Positions 719 to 50,566 of a stretch of DNA of 62,768 nucleotides are shown here, piece after piece. The DNA comes from a virus. Lineage: Duplodnaviria; Caudoviricetes. The translations under genes were made by a program, and so were the position numbers. Within the stretch, counting starts at the first letter, position 1; each line of letters opens with the position of its first letter. The notes under the pieces were generated by a model, which searched no databases, was not told the origin of the DNA, and saw nothing but the letters and a program-made list of their open reading frames with translations. The stretch covers positions 1 to 62,768 of the IMG/VR virus record IMGVR_UViG_3300020123_000165; one strand, 5' to 3'.

Positions 719-856
719 ATGCCTCTAGCTAAGTCCGCCTCTAAAAAGGCCGTCTCCAAGAACATCAAGACCGAGATAGCCGCGGGGAAGCCTCAGAAAC
801 AGGCTGTCGCTATTGCTCTATCAGTTCAACGGAAAGCCAAATCACGTGGAAAATGA
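719..856 (+). CDS. Small basic phage protein (45 aa, MPLAKSASKKAVSKNIKTEIAAGKPQKQAVAIALS)
   Basis: Read manually (below track cutoff); GGAG RBS; KPQKQAVAIALS motif common before portal genes. Confidence 0.8.
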   Translation: MPLAKSASKKAVSKNIKTEIAAGKPQKQAVAIALSVQRKAKSRGK

Positions 857-3539
857 CCTCAACCCCTTAACTTTGGGTGAGACTCCTGAAGATTTGATCG
901 AGAACCCCGATGGTTCGGTGGATGTGCCTCTCGAAGACTCTTCCGAGCCCCATTCTGGCGAGTTTATGGAGAATCTGGCGGAGGAATTGCCAGAAAGTGA
1001 GCTTATCGACATCGCCACTGAGCTTTGTGAGCTCATTGAGAAGGACAAGAAGAGCCGTGAAAAACGTGATAAGCAGTATCAGGAAGGCCTTCGTCGCACT
1101 GGTTTGGGTGACGATGCTCCAGGCGGAGCTGAGTTTGAGGGCGCTTCTAAGGTGGTACATCCAGTGTTGGCCGAAGCCTGTGTGGATTTTGCTAGTCGCG
1201 CAATCAAAGAACTGTTCCCGGCCTCTGGTCCTGTAAAGCCTTGGGTCATTGGGACCATTTCACCAGAGAAGCTTGAGCGGGCCAATCGTAAGACTCGGTA
1301 CATGAACTGGCAGCTCACGACCCAGATCAAAGAGTATCGTGATGAGCTGGAACAGATCCTGACTCAGGTCCCGATGGGTGGTAGCCAGTACCAAAAGTTC
1401 TGGTATGATGAGCGCTTTCATCGAGCTAAGGTCGAATTTGTCCCAATCGACGATGTCTTTCTGCCGTTCTCTGCCACCAATTTCTACACGGCTCAGCGAG
1501 TAACTCATCGCCAGTCGATCACGAAGTATGAGTATCAAGAACGAGTCAAATCAGGGCTCTATCGTGACATCTTCATACCGTCGAAGAACTCGGCTCCTGA
1601 GCAATCTCGGTCAGCGAAAGCTAATGACAAGATCGAAGGTCGTGAAGAAGACGGTTACAATGAGGATGGCCTTCGCGCTATCCTGGAGATCTATACCTGG
1701 CGTGGACTCGAAGGCGATGAACTGACCGCTGGGGAGTACGCCCCTTACATCATCACCATCGATGAAGACACCGAAGAAGTCTTGGCTATCTATCGAAACT
1801 GGAAAGAGAACGATCCCACTTTCGAGAAGCTGGACTGGTTCGTCGAATGGAAGTTCATCCCCTGGCGAGGCGCATATGCGATTGGTCTTCCTCATCTTAT
1901 TGGCGGCCTTAGTGCTGCTCTTACAGGTTCTCTGCGGGCCTTACTCGACTCTGCCCATATAAACAATGCCGCGACTATGCTCAAACTCAAGAGCGGTCGC
2001 ATCATTGGACAGAACACTCAGGTCAACGTAACACAGGTACAGGATATTGAAGGTCCTGCGGGTATTGACGACATTCGCAAGCTCGCGATGCCGATGCCGT
2101 TCAATCCCCCGAGCCCCGTCCTATTCCAGCTCATGCAAGAGCTGTATGGCCTGGCTAAGGGCGTAGTTGCTACGGCTGAGGAGAAGATTGGCCAGGTGGG
2201 CGATCGTACTCCAGTCGGAACGACGATGGCATTGATTGAGCAAGGATCAAACACCTACTCAGCCATCCACGCTCGTCTACATGAGTCTCAGAAGAAGGCT
2301 CTGGCCATTCTGCACCGCATCAATCAGGATTACCTGGATGAGCAGAATTCTACCTTTGATCTGGGTGAACAGACAGTATCTCGAGAAGACTTCCAGGGAA
2401 CAATGGACGTCATCCCAGTCTCTGATCCCACGATCTTCTCTGAGGCTCAACGATTCGCTCAAGCTCAAGCCGTCCTTCAGATGGCTCAGCAAGATGCGGG
2501 GAATCCGAAGGTTCCATGGAATCAAATTGCGGTACGTCGCCGGATCCTGAAGCAGATGCGAATCGAGGGGGTAGATGAACTTCTACCTGCTGAGAAAGAA
2601 CCTATCACCTCGGACTCCCTGACCGAGAACACAATGCTTCTTCAGGGCCATCCACTGGAAGCCGCTCCAGAGCAAGACCATTATATGCATATCCAGTCGC
2701 ATATGATGTTTTTGTCCAGCCCGATTCAACTGAAGAATCCGCTGGTTCAACCTCAGGTATTGATGCAGCTGCTAGGGCATATTGGAGAGCATATTCAGAT
2801 GTACCAGACTCGCTTGGTCATGAGTATCGCTGAGCAAGGCGGCATGCAAGATCAGGCCATTCTTCAGGGTATGGTGAAAGCTCAACAGGTTCTCACTACC
2901 CAGCTTGGTGAGCTTCTTACCCAGATTCCCCAAATTCAACAAGAGCTCCAGAAGCGTATTCCTCAGGCTCCAATGCCTCCTGAAGTTCAGGCCTCCCTCC
3001 AGATTGCTCAGATGGATACGCAACGTAAGGCTCAGTTCGATCAGGCCACTATCCAGTCTAAGCAAGCTGAACAACAAGCGGCTCAGCAGTTGGAGAATGC
3101 TAAGGTTCAGATGAAGCAGGCTGAGATGCAGTTCAATCAACAGGTTGAACAGATGAATCAGCAATTTGAGCAGCAGATGCGTCAGCTTGAGCTGAAGATC
3201 GAGAATGACTCTCATCAGGCACGCCAGCAAGTTGAGCTCATGAAGAATGAACAGGACAATCATCAGAAACAGATGACTGACCTGATCAAGAATCGAGATG
3301 ATAATGAGACTAAGGTTCTCATCGCACAGATGAGTAAGCAACTGGAGGCTATGACCCAAGTTAAGCCTCCGGAGAGCCCTATTGCTTCTCAAGTAGACCT
3401 CACTCCGCAGATCGAACAGCTTAATGGCCTTCTGGATCAACTGGGCAAGCAGCAAACTAGTGACGCCTTAGCTGAGACCATGAACAGTCTGAAAGCTATG
3501 GTCGAAGGTTTGAGTCAACCAACCACTAAGGTATACTGA
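846..3539 (+). CDS. Portal protein with long Q-rich coiled-coil C-terminus
   Basis: Position near terL; VHPVLAEACVDF, MNWQL, PVGTTMALIEQG..YSAIHARLH motifs; GTG 846 preferred over the track's TTG 813. Confidence 0.9.
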   Translation: MENDLNPLTLGETPEDLIENPDGSVDVPLEDSSEPHSGEFMENLAEELPESELIDIATELCELIEKDKKSREKRDKQYQEGLRRTGLGDDAPGGAEFEGASKVVHPVLAEACVDFASRAIKELFPASGPVKPWVIGTISPEKLERANRKTRYMNWQLTTQIKEYRDELEQILTQVPMGGSQYQKFWYDERFHRAKVEFVPIDDVFLPFSATNFYTAQRVTHRQSITKYEYQERVKSGLYRDIFIPSKNSAPEQSRSAKANDKIEGREEDGYNEDGLRAILEIYTWRGLEGDELTAGEYAPYIITIDEDTEEVLAIYRNWKENDPTFEKLDWFVEWKFIPWRGAYAIGLPHLIGGLSAALTGSLRALLDSAHINNAATMLKLKSGRIIGQNTQVNVTQVQDIEGPAGIDDIRKLAMPMPFNPPSPVLFQLMQELYGLAKGVVATAEEKIGQVGDRTPVGTTMALIEQGSNTYSAIHARLHESQKKALAILHRINQDYLDEQNSTFDLGEQTVSREDFQGTMDVIPVSDPTIFSEAQRFAQAQAVLQMAQQDAGNPKVPWNQIAVRRRILKQMRIEGVDELLPAEKEPITSDSLTENTMLLQGHPLEAAPEQDHYMHIQSHMMFLSSPIQLKNPLVQPQVLMQLLGHIGEHIQMYQTRLVMSIAEQGGMQDQAILQGMVKAQQVLTTQLGELLTQIPQIQQELQKRIPQAPMPPEVQASLQIAQMDTQRKAQFDQATIQSKQAEQQAAQQLENAKVQMKQAEMQFNQQVEQMNQQFEQQMRQLELKIENDSHQARQQVELMKNEQDNHQKQMTDLIKNRDDNETKVLIAQMSKQLEAMTQVKPPESPIASQVDLTPQIEQLNGLLDQLGKQQTSDALAETMNSLKAMVEGLSQPTTKVY

Positions 3540-4045: not shown

Positions 4046-4455
4046 GTATTCTAACTGACTTGGTCTCGGGCGGTGTAGGTGGAATCATTGAGTCTGTGGG
4101 CAAGGTGGCCGGGGATTTGATCACCACTGACAAAGAACGAATGCAGGCAGACCTGGATGCCTACAACGCGGAAACGACGCGGATGCAGGGGCAGGTGGAT
4201 GTCAATAAGATCGAGGCGGGTAGCAGTTCCTTCTTCGTGGCCGGCGCTCGCCCCTTCATCATGTGGATCTGCGGTATCGCCTTCGCATATGCCAGTGTGG
4301 TGGAGCCGATGCTCAGGTTCGGCGCGAAGGTCTGGTTCGGCTATCACGGTGACTTTCCTATCATCGACACCAACCTGACTATGCAAGTCCTCTTCGGTAT
4401 CCTGGGGCTTGGAGTAATGCGTAGCTACGACAAGAAAGCCGGCACTGCCAAGTGA
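4042..4455 (+). CDS. Holin (3TM/GTA-type)
   Basis: ARPFIMWICG and LGLGVMRSYDK motifs, hydrophobic segments, adjacent to lysin. Confidence 0.85.
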   Translation: MSILTDLVSGGVGGIIESVGKVAGDLITTDKERMQADLDAYNAETTRMQGQVDVNKIEAGSSSFFVAGARPFIMWICGIAFAYASVVEPMLRFGAKVWFGYHGDFPIIDTNLTMQVLFGILGLGVMRSYDKKAGTAK

Positions 4456-4471
4456 CTAAAGGACACTAGCA

Positions 4472-4786
4472 ATGGACACTCAAATCATTCTACTAATTAT
4501 CTCTGGCACCGGCGTGGTCATGTGGTACTTGCTTAGGCAAAAGGACCAACAGCAGGCCGACTCTATCGCCCTCCTGTTCAAGAAGCATGACGATGACTAT
4601 GCTGAGCTACAGGCTTTGAAATTACAAATTGCCTCACACTACTATGTCAAGAGTGAGCTGGATGTGAAGTTTGATAGGCTGGAGACGGCCTTCAACAACG
4701 GCTTTAATACTCTAGGCCTGAAGTTCGATAAGCTTGGAGATGCCCTGACAAACCATATCAATATGGAAGACGTACGTAAGCCCTAA
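4472..4786 (+). CDS. Membrane-anchored coiled-coil protein of the lysis module
   Basis: N-terminal TM helix then heptad-like region; follows holin. Confidence 0.6.
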   Translation: MDTQIILLIISGTGVVMWYLLRQKDQQQADSIALLFKKHDDDYAELQALKLQIASHYYVKSELDVKFDRLETAFNNGFNTLGLKFDKLGDALTNHINMEDVRKP

Positions 4787-4806
4787 ATTAATTCATACTC
4801 AGCCAG

Positions 4807-4828
4807 ATACCCCTTCGGGGGTATTTTT
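4807..4828 (+). terminator. Intrinsic terminator
   Basis: ATACCCC-TTCG-GGGGTAT followed by T run. Confidence 0.9.
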
Positions 4829-4852
4829 GTAGACGAGTTTCAAATATATTGG

Positions 4853-4869
4853 GCTTGACGTGGTAAAAT
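4853..4869 (+). promoter_or_regulatory. Putative late promoter (extended -10 TGgTAAAAT)
   Basis: GCTTGACGTGGTAAAAT, 15/17 identical to 59940-59956; after terminator, before head operon. Confidence 0.5.
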
Positions 4870-4914
4870 TTGAACTAGGCAAGACCCAGTCACTCATCAT
4901 GCAAGGAGAAAGAA

Positions 4915-5073
4915 ATGGGAAAGTTGGCTCAGCAACTCAGCGGGCAAAGCCAAGTCAAGGCTTATAAGAACGGCGGTAAGGTCAATGATGATGCTAAGGC
5001 AGATAAGAAGCTCATCAAAGAAGAACTCAAGAAGAGTGGCTGTATGAAGCGCGGTGGAAAGGTGAAGAAATAA
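4915..5073 (+). CDS. Small Lys-rich protein (52 aa) with two GG tags (YKNGGKV, MKRGGKV)
   Basis: Read manually; AAGGAG RBS; stop overlaps next ATG. Confidence 0.8.
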   Translation: MGKLAQQLSGQSQVKAYKNGGKVNDDAKADKKLIKEELKKSGCMKRGGKVKK

Positions 5074-5249
5074 TGGCCAAGTTCCTGGTTACCTATGCCG
5101 ATGGCTCTCAGAAAACTGAGGAGCAATCCGACTGCTCTACGGTAGAGCAATTCATCAACTGCCGCTTCGGTACGGCCGATACTTCTGGTGTCAAGGTCGA
5201 GCTGGAAGGTGAGGAAGCTCCAGTGGCTAAGAAGGCCAAAGGTAAGTGA
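5073..5249 (+). CDS. Hypothetical protein (58 aa, MAKFLVTYADGSQK...)
   Basis: Read manually; TAATG and GTGA coupling to neighbours. Confidence 0.7.
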   Translation: MAKFLVTYADGSQKTEEQSDCSTVEQFINCRFGTADTSGVKVELEGEEAPVAKKAKGK

Positions 5250-5428
5250 GCCTTACTGGTCAACTCGTCCTGAGTATCAAGAACCGGATTCAAGAACTCC
5301 GGGAGGATCTATCGGACCTTTCTGCCACTGATCTATATGTAGTTGGTAAACTACAAGGCAGGATCCAGGGCCTTAAAGAGTCACTGATGCTCCTGGAGAA
5401 CCTCATAGAAGAGACCGACAAAGATTAA
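5246..5428 (+). CDS. Hypothetical small helical protein
   Basis: ORF track; coupled to previous gene; Y..GKLQG..QGL motif. Confidence 0.7.
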   Translation: MSLTGQLVLSIKNRIQELREDLSDLSATDLYVVGKLQGRIQGLKESLMLLENLIEETDKD

Positions 5429-5495
5429 GTCTACCTCACTCTCCGACGGGAGAGGACATCTGCCCCGATGTCATGAGGTAGACCCTAATGGGGCA
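5429..5495 (+). ncRNA. Putative structured RNA: three-way junction with pseudoknot, upstream of groES
   Basis: Perfect stems 5429-38/5474-83, 5439-44/5449-54, 5455-60/5467-72; loop TGCCCC complementary to GGGGCA at 5490-95. Confidence 0.7.
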
Positions 5496-5510
5496 TATTG
5501 GAGAATCGAA

Positions 5511-5918
5511 GTGATTCCAGCATCAAAGTTAGAAGACGCCTTCCCGGCGGTAGAACCTGGCGTGTATCCATTGGGCACCCGTGTCTTGGTTCAACTTCGG
5601 ACGGTACGACAGAAGACCGCCTCGGGGATTGTCCTGGTGGAGGACACCAAGCAATTTAATAAGGTGACCACTCAACTGGCCAAGGTAGTTCAACTTGGCC
5701 CCATCTCCTTCTGTAATCGCGAGTCAGCCAAACCCTGGCCTGAAGGTGTCTGGGTGCGAGCAGGTGACTTCATTCGGATGCCCAAGTATGGCGGTGATCG
5801 CTTCGAGCGAAAGATTCCCGGCACCGAGGATACCGCCCTCTTTGCTATCTTCCAGGATCATGAGATCATCGCAAAGGTAGACCCATCGGCCTTCGAAGAA
5901 CTGGACGACATACTATGA
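5511..5918 (+). CDS. groES: GroES-like co-chaperonin
   Basis: PLGTRVLV..KTASGIVL..AKVVQLGP..GD..KYGG motifs; GTG start after GGAG. Confidence 0.9.
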   Translation: MIPASKLEDAFPAVEPGVYPLGTRVLVQLRTVRQKTASGIVLVEDTKQFNKVTTQLAKVVQLGPISFCNRESAKPWPEGVWVRAGDFIRMPKYGGDRFERKIPGTEDTALFAIFQDHEIIAKVDPSAFEELDDIL

Positions 5919-6229
5919 GTGCCGATACTCAAGTCGAGGATATGATCCTCCGTAAAGGCCTGACCGCTCCGCGTGTCACTCCCGCTCAGATCGAAGCTTT
6001 GGTGGGTCGAGTACATCACACTTATGAGGTCCAGGGCACCTCAACTTTCTGTCATGCCTTTCTGGATGGGAAGTTCTACCTGGGCTCGGGCCACTCCGCC
6101 TGTGTGTCTCCTGAGAACTTTGATGAGGGAGTGGGTCGCACGGTCGCCTTCAATAATGTAGGGACAGTCGTACGCAATAAGCTTTGGGAACTCGAAGGCT
6201 ACTCTCTGTACAAGGAACTCAACAAATGA
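5915..6229 (+). CDS. N4 Gp49/Sf6 gp66 family protein (Acb4-like nucleotide sponge candidate)
   Basis: GLTAPRVT..IE, GHSACVSPENFDEGVG, KLWELEGY motifs. Confidence 0.8.
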   Translation: MSADTQVEDMILRKGLTAPRVTPAQIEALVGRVHHTYEVQGTSTFCHAFLDGKFYLGSGHSACVSPENFDEGVGRTVAFNNVGTVVRNKLWELEGYSLYKELNK

Positions 6230-6381
6230 AACTTCGATTTGAACTGACGCCGGAAGAGGCCAACCTGGTAGTAGCTGGCTTGTTGGAACTGCCCGCCAAG
6301 AATTCGATGGCCCTGATCCAGAACCTGCAACAGCAAGCTGCTGCTCAGCTTACCCCCAAGGAGGAGAACAATAATGGCTGA
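6226..6381 (+). CDS. Hypothetical protein (51 aa)
   Basis: ATG 6226 overlaps previous stop; L.ELP...S..LI..LQQQA pattern. Confidence 0.7.
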   Translation: MKLRFELTPEEANLVVAGLLELPAKNSMALIQNLQQQAAAQLTPKEENNNG

Positions 6382-7324
6382 TGAGATTGAACTAAATATC
6401 GAGACGGGTGAAGAGGTTCTTAAGAACTCTGCGCCTGAAGATGAGCATCTTGACCAACCAGAGGGAGTCAAGGAGGAGGGTGATGAAGATCGTCCTCTTA
6501 ATACCGACAACGCCTCGGATGAGGAGCTCAACAATGCCGAAGACGATGAAGAACGAGAAGCAATTCGTGAGCGTCGTCGTCAAGAGCGCAAGCATCGTAA
6601 AGAGGCTCAGCGTGAACGTGAAGATACCCTTCGCCGAGAACTGGCTTCACGTGATGCAGTCATCAATGAGCTTCGTGGTAAGGTTGACCTTATTGAGCGT
6701 CGCAATACCGGGAGTGAGCTAGCTCAGGTAGACAATGCCATCCAGCAAGCTCAATCTGCCTACGCTTTCTTCAAGAACCAAATCCAGGTCGCCACTGAGG
6801 CTCAGAATGGCGCAGCGGTAGCTGATGCCACTGAGAACCTCTTCAAGTCTCAACGCAAGATTGAGGAACTGAATGGGCTGAAGAATGCTTTCTCTCAGCG
6901 TCAAGCTCAGCCCCAGCCCCTCGATCCCCGCATGAAGACACATGCTGAAGGCTGGATGAAACGCAACTCCTGGTATGACCCAACGGGTCGGGACCAAGAC
7001 TCTGAGATCGCTATGCGACTGGATCAGCGTATGGCCCAAGAAGGCTGGGATCCTACTACCGCCGAGTACTGGACGGAGTTGGATTCAAGAGTGAAAAAAT
7101 ATTTACCACATCGCGCAACTAGTGGTAAAATTCCCAGTAACAAGCCACGATCGGTTGTTACTGGATCTGGACGTGAAAGTAGTGGAAACGGTTCTTCTAC
7201 CACCTACAAACTTTCCGCTGATAGGGTTTCGGCTCTGAAAGAGGCTGGTATGTGGGATGATCCGAAGAAACGTGCTGAAGCTATCAAACGCTTCCGTGAC
7301 TATGACAAACAGAACAAGGCTTAA
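6374..7324 (+). CDS. Capsid scaffolding protein (probable)
   Basis: Acidic N-terminus, coiled coil, W..RNSWY; upstream of capsid genes. Confidence 0.7.
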   Translation: MADEIELNIETGEEVLKNSAPEDEHLDQPEGVKEEGDEDRPLNTDNASDEELNNAEDDEEREAIRERRRQERKHRKEAQREREDTLRRELASRDAVINELRGKVDLIERRNTGSELAQVDNAIQQAQSAYAFFKNQIQVATEAQNGAAVADATENLFKSQRKIEELNGLKNAFSQRQAQPQPLDPRMKTHAEGWMKRNSWYDPTGRDQDSEIAMRLDQRMAQEGWDPTTAEYWTELDSRVKKYLPHRATSGKIPSNKPRSVVTGSGRESSGNGSSTTYKLSADRVSALKEAGMWDDPKKRAEAIKRFRDYDKQNKA

Positions 7325-8484: not shown

Positions 8485-9396
8485 ATGGCTGGCACTATTA
8501 TGCGTAGTACTCAGTTTCGCTCGATCGTTGAGCCGATCCTGAATCAAGCCTTCGACGGCGTCTATGATCAACGTACTGATGAGTACAAAAAGATCTTCAC
8601 CGAAGAGAACGGCACTCCTCGCGCTTACCATGAAGAAGTTGTCCTGTATGGTATGGGCGCTGCTCCGATCCTGCCGGATGGCCAGGCTATCACGTACGAT
8701 GAGGGCGGTCAGCTCTACGTCAAGCGTTACACCTACGATGTCTATGGTCTGGCTTTTGCGCTGACCAAGGTCCTTGTGGAAGATGGTGATCACATCCGTG
8801 TGGGCTCGACGATGTCCAAGCATCTGGCCCAGGCCATGGATGAGACCCTGGAGACCGTCACGGCCAATCACTTGAACCGCGCTTTCACCTCTGGCTACAA
8901 CGGCGGCGATGGTGTGGTCCTCTGCTCGGCCTCGCACCCGGTCATCAGTGGCACTCAGTCTAACGTTCTGACTTCAGCCGCTCTGTCTCAGACCTCGGTC
9001 GAGCAAGCTCTGATCCAGGTTCGTCAGGCTCAAGACAGCCGTGGTAAGCGTATTCGTCTGACGCCGAAGAAGTTGATCGTGCATCCGGCCAATATGCTCC
9101 AGGTCGAAGTTCTGCTGAAGTCCATCCTGCGCACTGGTACCACCAACAATGATCTTAACCCGATCAAGTCTGCTGGTTCCCTCCAGGACTCCGTGGTCAT
9201 CAGCCGCCTGACCTCTTCGACCGCTTGGTTCGTCCAGACCGATGCCCGTGATGGCTTGAAGGTTCTCTGGCGTCGTAAGCTGGAAAAGGCCATGGAAGGC
9301 GACTTCGAAACCGACAGCGTTCGCTATAAGTCCACCATGCGCTTCGGCTCTGGCTGGACTGACTGGCGGAACATCTACGGCAACGCTGGCGTTTAA
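8485..9396 (+). CDS. Major capsid protein (HK97 fold)
   Basis: GGDGVVLCSASHP, PKKLIVHP, GDFETDSVRYK..RF..GWTDWR; followed by strong terminator. Confidence 0.9.
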   Translation: MAGTIMRSTQFRSIVEPILNQAFDGVYDQRTDEYKKIFTEENGTPRAYHEEVVLYGMGAAPILPDGQAITYDEGGQLYVKRYTYDVYGLAFALTKVLVEDGDHIRVGSTMSKHLAQAMDETLETVTANHLNRAFTSGYNGGDGVVLCSASHPVISGTQSNVLTSAALSQTSVEQALIQVRQAQDSRGKRIRLTPKKLIVHPANMLQVEVLLKSILRTGTTNNDLNPIKSAGSLQDSVVISRLTSSTAWFVQTDARDGLKVLWRRKLEKAMEGDFETDSVRYKSTMRFGSGWTDWRNIYGNAGV

Positions 9397-9413: not shown

Positions 9414-9437
9414 ATAGGCCCTTCGGGGCCTATTTTT
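9414..9437 (+). terminator. Intrinsic terminator after MCP
   Basis: ATAGGCCC-TTCG-GGGCCTAT plus T run. Confidence 0.92.
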
Positions 9438-48559: not shown

Positions 48560-50566
48560 TTAGAACTTGATGTTAATGATACGAGAGAAGCTGCCCTTGA
48601 CCCGGCAGACAAGTGAGTTGCGTTGCGTACTGCTAAAACCGAGGCCACTCAGTTGATCCCGGGATTCTTCTGTACGCATACGGGAGCCCACCATCTCCAT
48701 GACCTTACGATGCGATTCCAGTGACGTATTGAGGAACTCATTATAGAATCCCCGAGCCGTACCGTCATTCTGACAACCATCGATCATGAAGAAATAATGG
48801 CGATTGCCTACTCCCTGACCATCCCAGTGGTTTGGTGATAGCATGATAGCATTAACCCGCTGGAAGGTTCGGGTCTGGATACCCCACACTTCTTGGGTCT
48901 TAACCTCTTGGGATGAAGATAGTGACTTGATCATCTCAATACCTTTATCATGTGAGTACCTGAACTGGGCCACCAAGATCGTCTCTCCATCCCTGACCGC
49001 CTTTTCATAAGCAAAGCGATGAACGTCTCCCAAGAAATCCATTTCTACTTCAAACCCCACATTTGTAGACTCACGTTTTCGGTAGTTATGTACTATCAGT
49101 TGGTAGACACCTTCTTTCATTGCCCGCTTATTGCCGTAGAAGATATTCTCTACTGGTTCCCGAGTAGATCCTACTCCAGCATTCATGTCAACGTCCAGGC
49201 GACCACCACTGGGAGAGGTATTGTTACGATTTCCAAAATAAATCTCGTAACCCCCCGGCTCTTGCATATGAAAGTCAAGGTCATCAAAATTGAACCAAGC
49301 TAACCGACAGCATAGATCACCTGAGACGTTCCCACCCGCTTTCTTTACCCGTTCTTTGATACTGTCAGTCACGTCACCATTGTATGACCAGCTGAATCCG
49401 TTGTCCCACTTGAATAGCCGCTGGGCAGTAGGGTCGACTGGAGCAATCAAACTGACCAGGTTGCCGGTGTGACTGTTGTCCATCATCACTTCAATACTGT
49501 CAGCCTTGGGAAGAATGTCAGTGATGAACTTGTCAATACTGACTTCTTCTATCCGATCTAAGCGAGGCACGCTGTCTTTGGTACTGGAAGCCAGGTCGTC
49601 GAACACACTACCTTCCATCCGCTTTCGAGCTGAACGGTCGGCGAACAGTACGTTGTTGACGGAGATGTCAGGCAGCTTGGCGTACCGCCGTTCAAGTGAT
49701 GAGGTCAATCCCAAGTCTTCCACCGTTTCCTTGGCCTTGTCAATCATCGCCTTGGTCACGAGTGCTGTCGGGCGCTTGTAGTTCTGGGGGGCCACCATCG
49801 CTTCGAACCGTTTAACAGCGTCTTCCAATTCCATGCCTTCGGACAGTTCGGTGAGCAATGTGCCAATACTGGTGTTGCGGATACGAGTGATAGCCTGAGA
49901 AATGCTGGCACTGACCTTGGTCCACACCCAGATATCGTCGGTGTATTGGGCCTTTAGTTTCTTGAACTCTGAGACCGCGAACCGGTTTTCTTCCCCTTTA
50001 TACAGGCTATTCTGATCGATGAGTTCAAGGACGGTGTCCAACGCCTCGAAAGTGATCTCATTAAGACCACGCTTGAATACGTCGAAGGTGGATCGCTTTT
50101 CGCCGAGATATGCACCGGGATCTTTCTTGACATACTCTGCAGGGATGTTGATGAAGAAGTGGTTCCAGGTCTTGACACCGTTGATAGTGTCTTCGAAGTT
50201 CTTGTCCGTGCCGGCAGTACGTTCTTCATGCGTGAACACGTTGTCAATCGGGAAGGACTTAACGAAAAAAGCCATCTTATCAGCAACATCCTGATACTCA
50301 GGCTCACCACTGATAGTCGTGTCCCAGAGACTGACTACCTTGCCGTCAATGATAGCGACCACATTGCCGACCGCACGAATGAACTGTTTGCAGCACGAGC
50401 AGTCATGCTCAGTGCGTTCACGATACAGCGGATTGGATCCCTCAGGAAAGCTGTTGAGATAGGTATCCCACAGACCTTCCTTTGGAGCCTGTGTGCGGTA
50501 CAGCGGGTGTTGTTGCATAGTGGCGAATTGCCGAGCAACCGCCTCTTTAAAAGCTACGAAATTCAT
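48560..50566 (-). CDS. Large conserved phage protein (668 aa) with HDCxxC and YfaP/DUF2135-like region
   Basis: HDCSCCKQFIR; DDLDFH..P....IYF; GRLDVD.N...PVENI. Confidence 0.7.
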   Translation of the reverse strand: MNFVAFKEAVARQFATMQQHPLYRTQAPKEGLWDTYLNSFPEGSNPLYRERTEHDCSCCKQFIRAVGNVVAIIDGKVVSLWDTTISGEPEYQDVADKMAFFVKSFPIDNVFTHEERTAGTDKNFEDTINGVKTWNHFFINIPAEYVKKDPGAYLGEKRSTFDVFKRGLNEITFEALDTVLELIDQNSLYKGEENRFAVSEFKKLKAQYTDDIWVWTKVSASISQAITRIRNTSIGTLLTELSEGMELEDAVKRFEAMVAPQNYKRPTALVTKAMIDKAKETVEDLGLTSSLERRYAKLPDISVNNVLFADRSARKRMEGSVFDDLASSTKDSVPRLDRIEEVSIDKFITDILPKADSIEVMMDNSHTGNLVSLIAPVDPTAQRLFKWDNGFSWSYNGDVTDSIKERVKKAGGNVSGDLCCRLAWFNFDDLDFHMQEPGGYEIYFGNRNNTSPSGGRLDVDMNAGVGSTREPVENIFYGNKRAMKEGVYQLIVHNYRKRESTNVGFEVEMDFLGDVHRFAYEKAVRDGETILVAQFRYSHDKGIEMIKSLSSSQEVKTQEVWGIQTRTFQRVNAIMLSPNHWDGQGVGNRHYFFMIDGCQNDGTARGFYNEFLNTSLESHRKVMEMVGSRMRTEESRDQLSGLGFSSTQRNSLVCRVKGSFSRIINIKF

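Follow-up and report, generated by a model that had tools for sequence, protein, structure and literature searches.

A pseudoknotted three-way-junction RNA upstream of a phage GroES-like gene: evidence for a structured cis-acting mRNA leader

The intergenic gap upstream of a GroES-like gene in a phage genome encodes a compact RNA element, approximately 70 nt in size, in which three short helices (P1, P2, and P3) meet at a three-way junction and the loop of P3 pairs with the single strand that follows P1, just before the Shine-Dalgarno (SD) sequence of the gene. The stretch of DNA analyzed (62,768 bp), referred to here as the window, represents an entire phage genome carrying direct terminal repeats. 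Comparison with at least 25 distinct homologous sequences on at least 36 viral or metagenomic contigs indicates that the element is far more than a chance fold, and we propose that it represents a new RNA family, a structured cis-acting leader of a phage mRNA with an architecture found neither in Rfam nor in the literature searched. Its function is inferred from sequence. The reading we favor, to which we assign a probability of roughly 0.4, is that the element acts as a stable 5′-proximal barrier and organizer of the head-gene message, with an xrRNA-like topology; a translational operator ranks second. The parts of the element and the neighboring features of the window are as follows.

5246–5428, + strand: upstream 60-aa ORF; its TAA stop abuts P1
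5420–5428, + strand: A/U-rich single-stranded 5′ flank, including the TAA stop (5426–5428) of the upstream 60-aa ORF
5429–5438, + strand: P1 5′ strand, GTCTACCTCA; 6 of 9 pairs change on both sides and three C-G pairs are invariant
5439–5454, + strand: P2 hairpin, CTCTCC / GACG / GGAGAG (5439–5444 with 5449–5454, loop 5445–5448); 6 of 6 pairs covary
5455–5472, + strand: P3 hairpin, GACATC / TGCCCC / GATGTC (5455–5460 with 5467–5472); 5 of 6 pairs covary
5461–5466, + strand: P3 loop TGCCCC, the 5′ strand of the pseudoknot, pairing with 5490–5495
5473, + strand: P3/P1 junction nucleotide; 2 nt (R-Y) in most homologues
5474–5483, + strand: P1 3′ strand, TGAGGTAGAC, pairing with 5429–5438
5484–5489, + strand: pyrimidine-rich linker CCTAAT from P1 to the pseudoknot strand; 4–13 nt in homologues
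5490–5495, + strand: pseudoknot 3′ strand GGGGCA, forming 6 bp with the P3 loop and ending 4 nt before the SD
5500–5503, + strand: SD sequence GGAG of the GroES-like gene, 2–8 nt after the pseudoknot strand in homologues
5503–5517 (about 5498–5520), + strand: weak predicted hairpin GAATC / GATTC at the ribosome-binding site (RBS), covering the 3′ part of the SD, the spacer, the start codon, and codons 2–3
5511–5918, + strand: GroES-like (Cpn10) gene, GTG start, 135 aa; Pfam PF00166, E 1.7e-8, 34.8 bits (cut-off 21.1)
8485–9396, + strand: major capsid gene
9414–9433, + strand: intrinsic terminator with an 8 bp stem (5 G-C pairs) and a T tract, 18 nt after the major capsid gene

When window positions 5425–5515 were folded with RNAfold, the three-way junction was returned as both the MFE and the centroid structure at −36.2 kcal/mol, as compared to a mean of −24.0 (sd 3.3) for dinucleotide shuffles (z −3.73; 0 of 200 equally stable). 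The junction itself spans 5429–5483, with a P1 of 10 bp and a P2 and P3 of 6 bp each, and the P1 10-mer is matched exactly on the + strand at 5429 and on the − strand at 5474–5483. All three stems described in the initial annotation are thereby recovered at the same bases, the comparison of homologues providing the decisive support.

Homologous loci were obtained by protein search and a conserved RBS-pattern scan of viral contigs, by an alignment-based search of metagenome contigs, and by a motif-only pattern scan of viral contigs (at least 115 stretches, 72 new loci searched); all loci except one (L133) were retrieved via the GroES-like gene or its RBS. A covariance model (R1) identified the element at 44 places in 91 loci, as well as in the window itself and in L133. 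Unconstrained folds of 103 nt contained the junction in 23 of 24 homologues and, with the tail trimmed, in 24 of 24, while the predicted energy of the junction alone ranged from −26 to −38 kcal/mol across the 24. RNAalifold, applied to a plain MAFFT alignment of the same number of homologues, recovered these helices, and 15 of its 19 pairs were compensatory. Within MAFFT alignment A3, standard pairs occupy 94.0% of 503 cells, as compared to 69.7% in shuffles and 41–45% when the partner strand is slid; the P3 stem is paired in 97.9% of its cells. Double-sided changes occur at 17 of the 21 pairs of this alignment, and 0 of 500 shuffles reach any of five measures, counts that are not to be read as probabilities, the homologues being phylogenetically related. 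A model-fitted alignment of 25 sequences, which leans towards structure, gave similar values (94.8% paired, 17 of 21 double-sided). Covariation, with the pseudoknot included, had been proposed at the outset as a check on the fold, and it supports the fold at both levels: stem pairs are compensatory, and loop–tail pairing is kept in 24 of 24 homologues.

The stems also carry information on strand. G·U cells outnumber A·C cells among the 480 scored in homologue stems (28 versus 9), which indicates that the folded strand is the + strand, that is, the mRNA strand, sense for the GroES-like gene. The combination of compensatory change and G·U excess leads us to reject a palindrome or operator acting at the DNA level, such as CIRCE. 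Sequence conservation is partial: three C-G pairs in P1 and the first pair of P3 are invariant, P3 is mostly GAAG/CUUC, and the P2 loop follows G-R-C-S (GACG or GGCC), with the G and the C each kept in 23 of 24 sequences. The junction strands comprise 1, 0, and 2 nt, leaving approximately three junction nucleotides unpaired. An A occupies the P1/P2 junction in 21 of 24 sequences, and the P3/P1 junction has 19 A and 5 G in column 58 and 13 C, 10 T, and 1 G in column 59; none of the unpaired junction positions is invariant among the 24. This near absence of conserved unpaired bases argues against a riboswitch or a ribozyme, which would be expected to have a ligand pocket or a catalytic core, respectively.

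Pairing between the P3 loop and the tail was scored with a custom script, MAFFT leaving the two strands out of register. The initial annotation had noted that GGGGCA at 5490–5495, 4 nt before the GGAG, is complementary to the whole P3 loop, and the comparison bears this out: a contiguous loop–tail helix of 5–7 bp can be formed in 24 of 24 junction-bearing sequences, with predicted duplex energies of −7.4 to −11.4 kcal/mol, and in each of them it lies 4–13 nt after P1 and 2–8 nt before the SD. A 6-bp loop–tail pairing is likewise seen in L133 by inspection. About a dozen different pseudoknot sequences occur among the homologues, for example TGCCCC/GGGGCA, AGTCTCC/GGAGACT, TGCTCCA/TGGAGCA, TCTCCTA/TAGGAGA, and CCCAGA/TCTGGG, together with CTCCAG/CTGGAG, GCCTCA/TGAGGC, GCCTCT/AGAGGC, TGCCTAT/ATAGGCG, and TACCCGG/TCGGGTA. 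Among 16 distinct loops, cognate tails scored a mean of 6.1 versus 4.0 for non-cognate tails, and 0 of 10,000 tail permutations reached the observed mean; shuffled tails gave a mean of 3.0 and a maximum of 3.7. The letters of the pseudoknot thus vary freely while the pairing is kept, suggesting that closure of the fold matters and its letters do not. A role of the pseudoknot as SD decoy or anti-SD was considered and rejected, as strands such as ATAGGC, CGGGTA, and GGGAC are not SD-like, and pairing of the P2 loop with the tail was rejected as amounting to only 1–3 bp.

The genetic context of the element is fixed among the loci found. In the complete genome of the window it is present in single copy (72.5 bits; next best match 10 bits with filters off), and all 44 model matches in the 91 loci, as well as L133, lie directly upstream of a GroES-like ORF. 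That the element is tied to this gene alone is indicated by the single copy in a complete genome and, among the matches listed, by one motif scan; copies away from GroES-like genes may exist. The element begins 0–6 nt after a stop codon or 6–7 nt after a tRNA. In two contigs a tRNA-Thr(UGU) precedes P1 by 6–7 nt on the same strand (L001:2835–2910 and L073:1333–1408), with a truncated tRNA in a third (L064:1–66); the L073 tRNA separates the element from the homologue of the upstream ORF. Across 21 distinct flanks, mean A+U content in the 8 nt preceding P1 is 0.80, to which the TAA stop contributes, versus 0.50 for the genome, and the word R-N-W-U-U, which is the RNase E preference, occurs in 12 of the 21 flanks versus 12% of random genome windows.

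The element is encoded on the sense strand of a polycistronic late message, immediately ahead of the GroES-like gene with which the head-gene block opens. The surrounding late block, all on the same strand, comprises the portal gene (813–3539), lysis-type and small genes, the element, the GroES-like gene, a Phage_gp49_66 gene, a small ORF, a gene for an acidic 316-aa (scaffold-like) protein, two genes for proteins of approximately 185 aa, the major capsid gene, and the terminator. The terminator at 9414–9433 is likely the 3′ end of the head-gene message headed by the element. In L073 (1908–1918) and L133 (6845–6860) the Phage_gp49_66 gene and the small ORF (window 5915–6381) are missing, and the scaffold-like gene directly follows the GroES-like gene.

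Related phages differ in whether they carry the element. The nearest cultured relative, Caulobacter phage RW (GroES identity 47.6%), has a gene order like that of the window (terminase, portal, small genes, GroES, and 316-aa, 184-aa, 188-aa, and 304-aa proteins) but lacks the element. Where the GroES-like gene is no more than 70% identical (L016–L025, L075, L076, L078, L079, and L081–L083), the element is likewise absent upstream of it, and a blastn search of positions 4400–6400 against cultured phages returned no match. A reduced form is found in four contigs of identical sequence (L008, L010, L014, and L015, the same loci as L028, L045, L052, and L061), in which a 10-bp hairpin with an 11-nt loop keeps the outer P1 sequence while P2, P3, and the junction are lost. 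This hairpin lies approximately 75 nt upstream of the GroES-like start, and a loop–tail pairing of −10.6 kcal/mol is possible, with 54 of 2000 shuffles as good.

None of the catalogued RNA classes considered accounts for the element. Rfam in gathering mode gave 0 matches across the whole window, and at E values up to 10 no family matched at the element in window positions 5000–6000 or in nine homologous loci; the absence of a familiar consensus remarked on in the initial annotation therefore extends to Rfam 15, none of whose families matches the element. The nine loci yielded three tRNA matches (L001, L064, and L073) and three sub-threshold matches, all off the element. Within 5000–6000, a sub-threshold THF-II riboswitch match inside the upstream ORF (5256–5305; 18.3 bits versus 41, E 0.95) is probably due to chance, and a mir-14 match on the − strand (E 9.7) was likewise taken as chance. 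An intrinsic terminator had been discounted initially for want of a U tail, correctly so: the tail after P1 is CCTAATGGGG, with no U tract, T runs occur in few homologues, and a terminator scan found no site at 5429–5490. A tRNA or tmRNA is not indicated, with no tRNA genes in the window by ARAGORN. A known riboswitch was rejected on the basis of variable loops, no conserved unpaired pocket, no Rfam match, and a small modelled change in SD accessibility, and the small self-cleaving ribozymes (hammerhead, HDV-like/theta, twister, pistol, and hatchet) for lack of an Rfam match. An RNA thermometer of the ROSE or fourU type is disfavored because the SD, which lies outside both the junction and the pseudoknot, is unpaired within the element, and no Rfam ROSE or fourU match was obtained. 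A recoding stimulator for the upstream ORF was also rejected, as in-frame read-through adds 15 codons and a tRNA intervenes in L001 and L073.

The initial annotation had offered a cis-regulator of the message running from groES to the capsid gene (translational switch, thermometer, or nuclease block) or else a small ncRNA. Action in cis stands. The thermometer is disfavored, for the reason just given, and so is the small ncRNA: no consensus promoter or terminator flanks the element, its distance from the SD is always 2–8 nt, and in one related lineage a tRNA lies 6–7 nt upstream on the same strand. Nuclease block and translational control appear to be the two best-standing of these earlier readings.

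We tentatively favor the first of these, in the form of a constitutively folded, very stable module that would act post-transcriptionally in cis. Endonucleolytic cleavage within the A/U-rich sequence bordering P1, or excision of the tRNA in the lineage that has one, would make the element the 5′-terminal structure of the head-gene mRNA. In that position it would shield the message from 5′-end-dependent decay, acting on RNase E 5′ sensing and/or on a 5′-to-3′ exonuclease, and the adjacent SD would be kept in a defined, insulated context. Head proteins, which are needed in abundance, would as a result be served by a message more plentiful and longer-lived than that of the portal and lysis-type genes upstream. 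Several observations are consistent with such a barrier, namely the free letters of the pseudoknot, the A/U-rich flank with its frequent R-N-W-U-U word, the high stability, the defined 3′ terminator, and the tolerated tRNA, whose end 6–7 nt before P1 in L001 and L073 means that processing must generate a 5′ terminus at the base of P1. The lineage without a junction also points this way, in that it keeps a hairpin and loop–tail pairing, and a mechanical role would survive such a loss better than a sequence-specific protein-binding site.

The ompA 5′ hairpin, the B. subtilis/SP82 5′ stabilizers, and processing of the f1 gene VIII message are structures that raise an abundant product relative to upstream genes. 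They would share with the element, as proposed here, a stable structure near the 5′ end of a processed message. These stabilizers are simple hairpins or ribosome-binding sites, whereas the element is a covarying junction with a pseudoknot; as a plain 5′ hairpin would suffice for protection, the conserved junction and pseudoknot exceed what a barrier would strictly need.

In topology, the closest likeness is to the flaviviral class 1 xrRNAs, in which, as in the element, three short helices meet at a three-way junction, the P3 loop (L3) forms a pseudoknot with the single strand 3′ of P1 (S4), a hairpin follows the pseudoknot strand, and the overall size is approximately 70 nt. According to PMC5760640, xrRNAs are sequence-independent mechanical blocks, one of which stops the bacterial RNase J1 in vitro; this activity, together with the shared junction and L3–S4 pseudoknot, lends support to the barrier reading. 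The element differs from xrRNAs in having neither conserved core nucleotides nor a base triple, in the shortness of its junction strands (1, 0, and 2 nt), in matching no Rfam model, and in its location, before an ORF in the message of a DNA phage rather than in the 3′ UTR of an RNA virus. In xrRNAs, the 5′ end forms base pairs with nucleotides of the junction (PMC5760640). In 8 of 24 homologues, the 8-nt 5′ flank contains a complement to the 2-nt P3/P1 junction, against a permuted mean of 10.8; with pairing of this kind unsupported, the xrRNA serves as a lead to how the element may work and not as a class to which it belongs. It is quite unlikely, in our estimation, that the element is the first prokaryotic counterpart of an xrRNA, mechanically stopping an RNase J-type exonuclease or RNase E scanning at the head-gene message. 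Such a counterpart would generate a stable, subgenomic-like capsid-assembly mRNA and would have an origin independent of the flaviviral and plant-virus xrRNAs.

Further considerations weigh against the barrier. The closeness of the pseudoknot to the SD (2–8 nt) fits translational control equally well, and a protein-binding site could explain why the junction-proximal pairs, the P2 loop, and the P3 stem are partly conserved in sequence. The same gene block is expressed by phage RW and by the phages of L075–L079 and L016–L023, none of which has the element. The closest relatives in culture are phages of Caulobacter with a GroES identity of only 47.6%.

A translational operator is possible, although we consider it unlikely on balance. 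The module would dock on the 30S platform next to the SD, be bound by a protein, and trap or exclude the ribosome, providing feedback on the head-gene block; the protein might come from the phage (one involved in head assembly, or the GroES-like protein itself) or from the host (a ribosomal protein, for example). The leaders of E. coli rpsO (S15) and T4 gene 32 are pseudoknot translational operators acting in cis, and the P22 scaffold is subject to post-transcriptional autoregulation. As in the rpsO and gene 32 operators, the pseudoknot of the element lies in an mRNA leader and adjoins the RBS, its 3′ strand ending 2–8 nt before the SD in 24 of 24 sequences; unlike theirs, it is set inside a three-way junction and excludes both the SD and the start codon. 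That the SD is not part of the element tells against an operator. Candidate contacts for a protein are provided by the conserved C-G pairs of P1, the first pair of P3, the A at the P1/P2 junction, the G-R-C-S loop of P2, and the GAAG/CUUC of P3, and occurrence in single copy per genome, tied to one gene, is also in keeping with this reading. The element is further accompanied by the weak hairpin over the SD and start codon, a structure predicted for all 29 sequences compared (−3.6 to −7.0 kcal/mol), relatives without the junction among them. Variants of this hairpin that keep the pairing include GAAATC/GATTTC (L080), GGAATC/GATTTC (L064 and L133), and GAG-ATC/GATCTC (L074), the variation being small. 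However, the reduced lineage has given up the junction, P2, and P3 and yet keeps a hairpin with loop–tail pairing, and relatives regulate the same genes without the element.

We regard as very doubtful a conformational switch, responsive to a ligand, Mg2+, or temperature, in which the linker would pair with the SD and turn translation off when the pseudoknot is open, and formation of the pseudoknot would pull the linker along P3 and free the SD. Complementarity between the linker and the SD region is slightly above chance (3.9 versus 3.3; reached by 3 of 1000 genome windows and 0 of 1000 shuffles), and 4–7 bp are possible in 19 of 24 homologues, but the remaining 5 of 24 are limited to 3 bp or fewer. 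The SD being invariant, such pairing is beyond the reach of covariation. Modelled SD accessibility is nearly the same in the two pseudoknot states (means 0.01 and 0.04), is higher with the pseudoknot formed in 13 of 24 homologues, and falls within the range of other genes of the same phage. The approximately three unpaired junction nucleotides, with no conserved core resembling a pocket and no Rfam riboswitch match, are also unfavorable to a switch. Pairing of the 5′ strand of P2 with the SD is not conserved, by inspection, and was rejected.

Processive antitermination is mediated by RNA in the put- and EAR-like elements, and a comparable role here, in which the nascent fold would modify RNA polymerase and permit read-through of the capsid terminator into the tail genes, is very improbable. 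The element contains two adjacent hairpins and lies within an extended run of late genes on one strand, 4 kb ahead of a strong terminator. Against this, the capsid gene of phage RW is followed by an equivalent terminator (11-bp; L093:7595–7620) although RW lacks the element, no sequence or model similarity to catalogued families was detected, and the tight link to the RBS of the GroES-like gene would be left unexplained. In the window, late genes run on the + strand from approximately 52 kb across the genome ends to approximately 26 kb, and replication genes (DNA polymerase and ligase) lie on the − strand; a scan of ten large proteins revealed no phage RNA polymerase.

Self-cleavage by a new class of ribozyme, cutting at its own 5′ edge to release the head-gene message or the upstream tRNA, is highly improbable. 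The fold is compact and pseudoknotted, its junction-proximal pairs are conserved, and in one lineage it follows a tRNA. HDV-like theta ribozymes adjoin phage tRNAs (PMC10879173), and the element resembles them as a small pseudoknotted RNA directly downstream of a phage tRNA gene. The tRNA, however, accompanies the element in one lineage only, and both the nested double pseudoknot and the catalytic core are absent. The nested double pseudoknot of the HDV type is not seen, since a closed hairpin with covarying pairs occupies the strand between P1 and P3. Moreover, no family matches even at E values up to 10, none of the approximately three unpaired junction nucleotides is invariant, and the reduced lineage dispenses with the junction altogether. 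A separate small trans-acting RNA or a functionless chance palindrome is scarcely credible: the fold is compact enough for a stable small RNA, with nothing more specific in its favor, but no consensus promoter or terminator flanks an element that begins 0–6 nt after a stop codon or 6–7 nt after a tRNA, and chance is excluded by covariation.

To our knowledge, very few structured cis-acting RNAs of tailed phages have been characterized, T4 gene 32 being the textbook case. The present element stands out for the unusual clarity of its comparative support, for its fixed genetic context, and for the lack of a database match. Literature searches combining xrRNA with bacteriophage returned no phage xrRNA among the matches listed, and those combining three-way junction, pseudoknot, phage, and GroES returned no prior description. 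Over 10,000 candidate viral structured RNAs are reported in PMC10690425, whose main text contains no motif associated with GroES or a chaperonin and whose supplementary tables may list the element; the gene 32 pseudoknot is absent from Rfam according to a passage of the same source (PMC10690425). If the element does form a decay barrier, the xrRNA principle would extend to bacteria, and a compact natural part would be available for stabilizing or insulating bacterial messages. An operator function would instead suggest that head assembly in the phage is under feedback control acting at a co-chaperonin.

Two further proteins of the window are of note. The portal protein (908 aa) ends in a long glutamine-rich, coiled-coil-like extension occupying approximately its 250 C-terminal residues, its RW homologue having 829 aa. 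A 668-aa protein encoded on the − strand at 48560–50566 matches phrog_1735 from end to end (E 4e-281; 557 phage records) and is 52–57% identical to proteins of giant Caulobacter (phiCbK group), Serratia, and Ralstonia jumbo phages.
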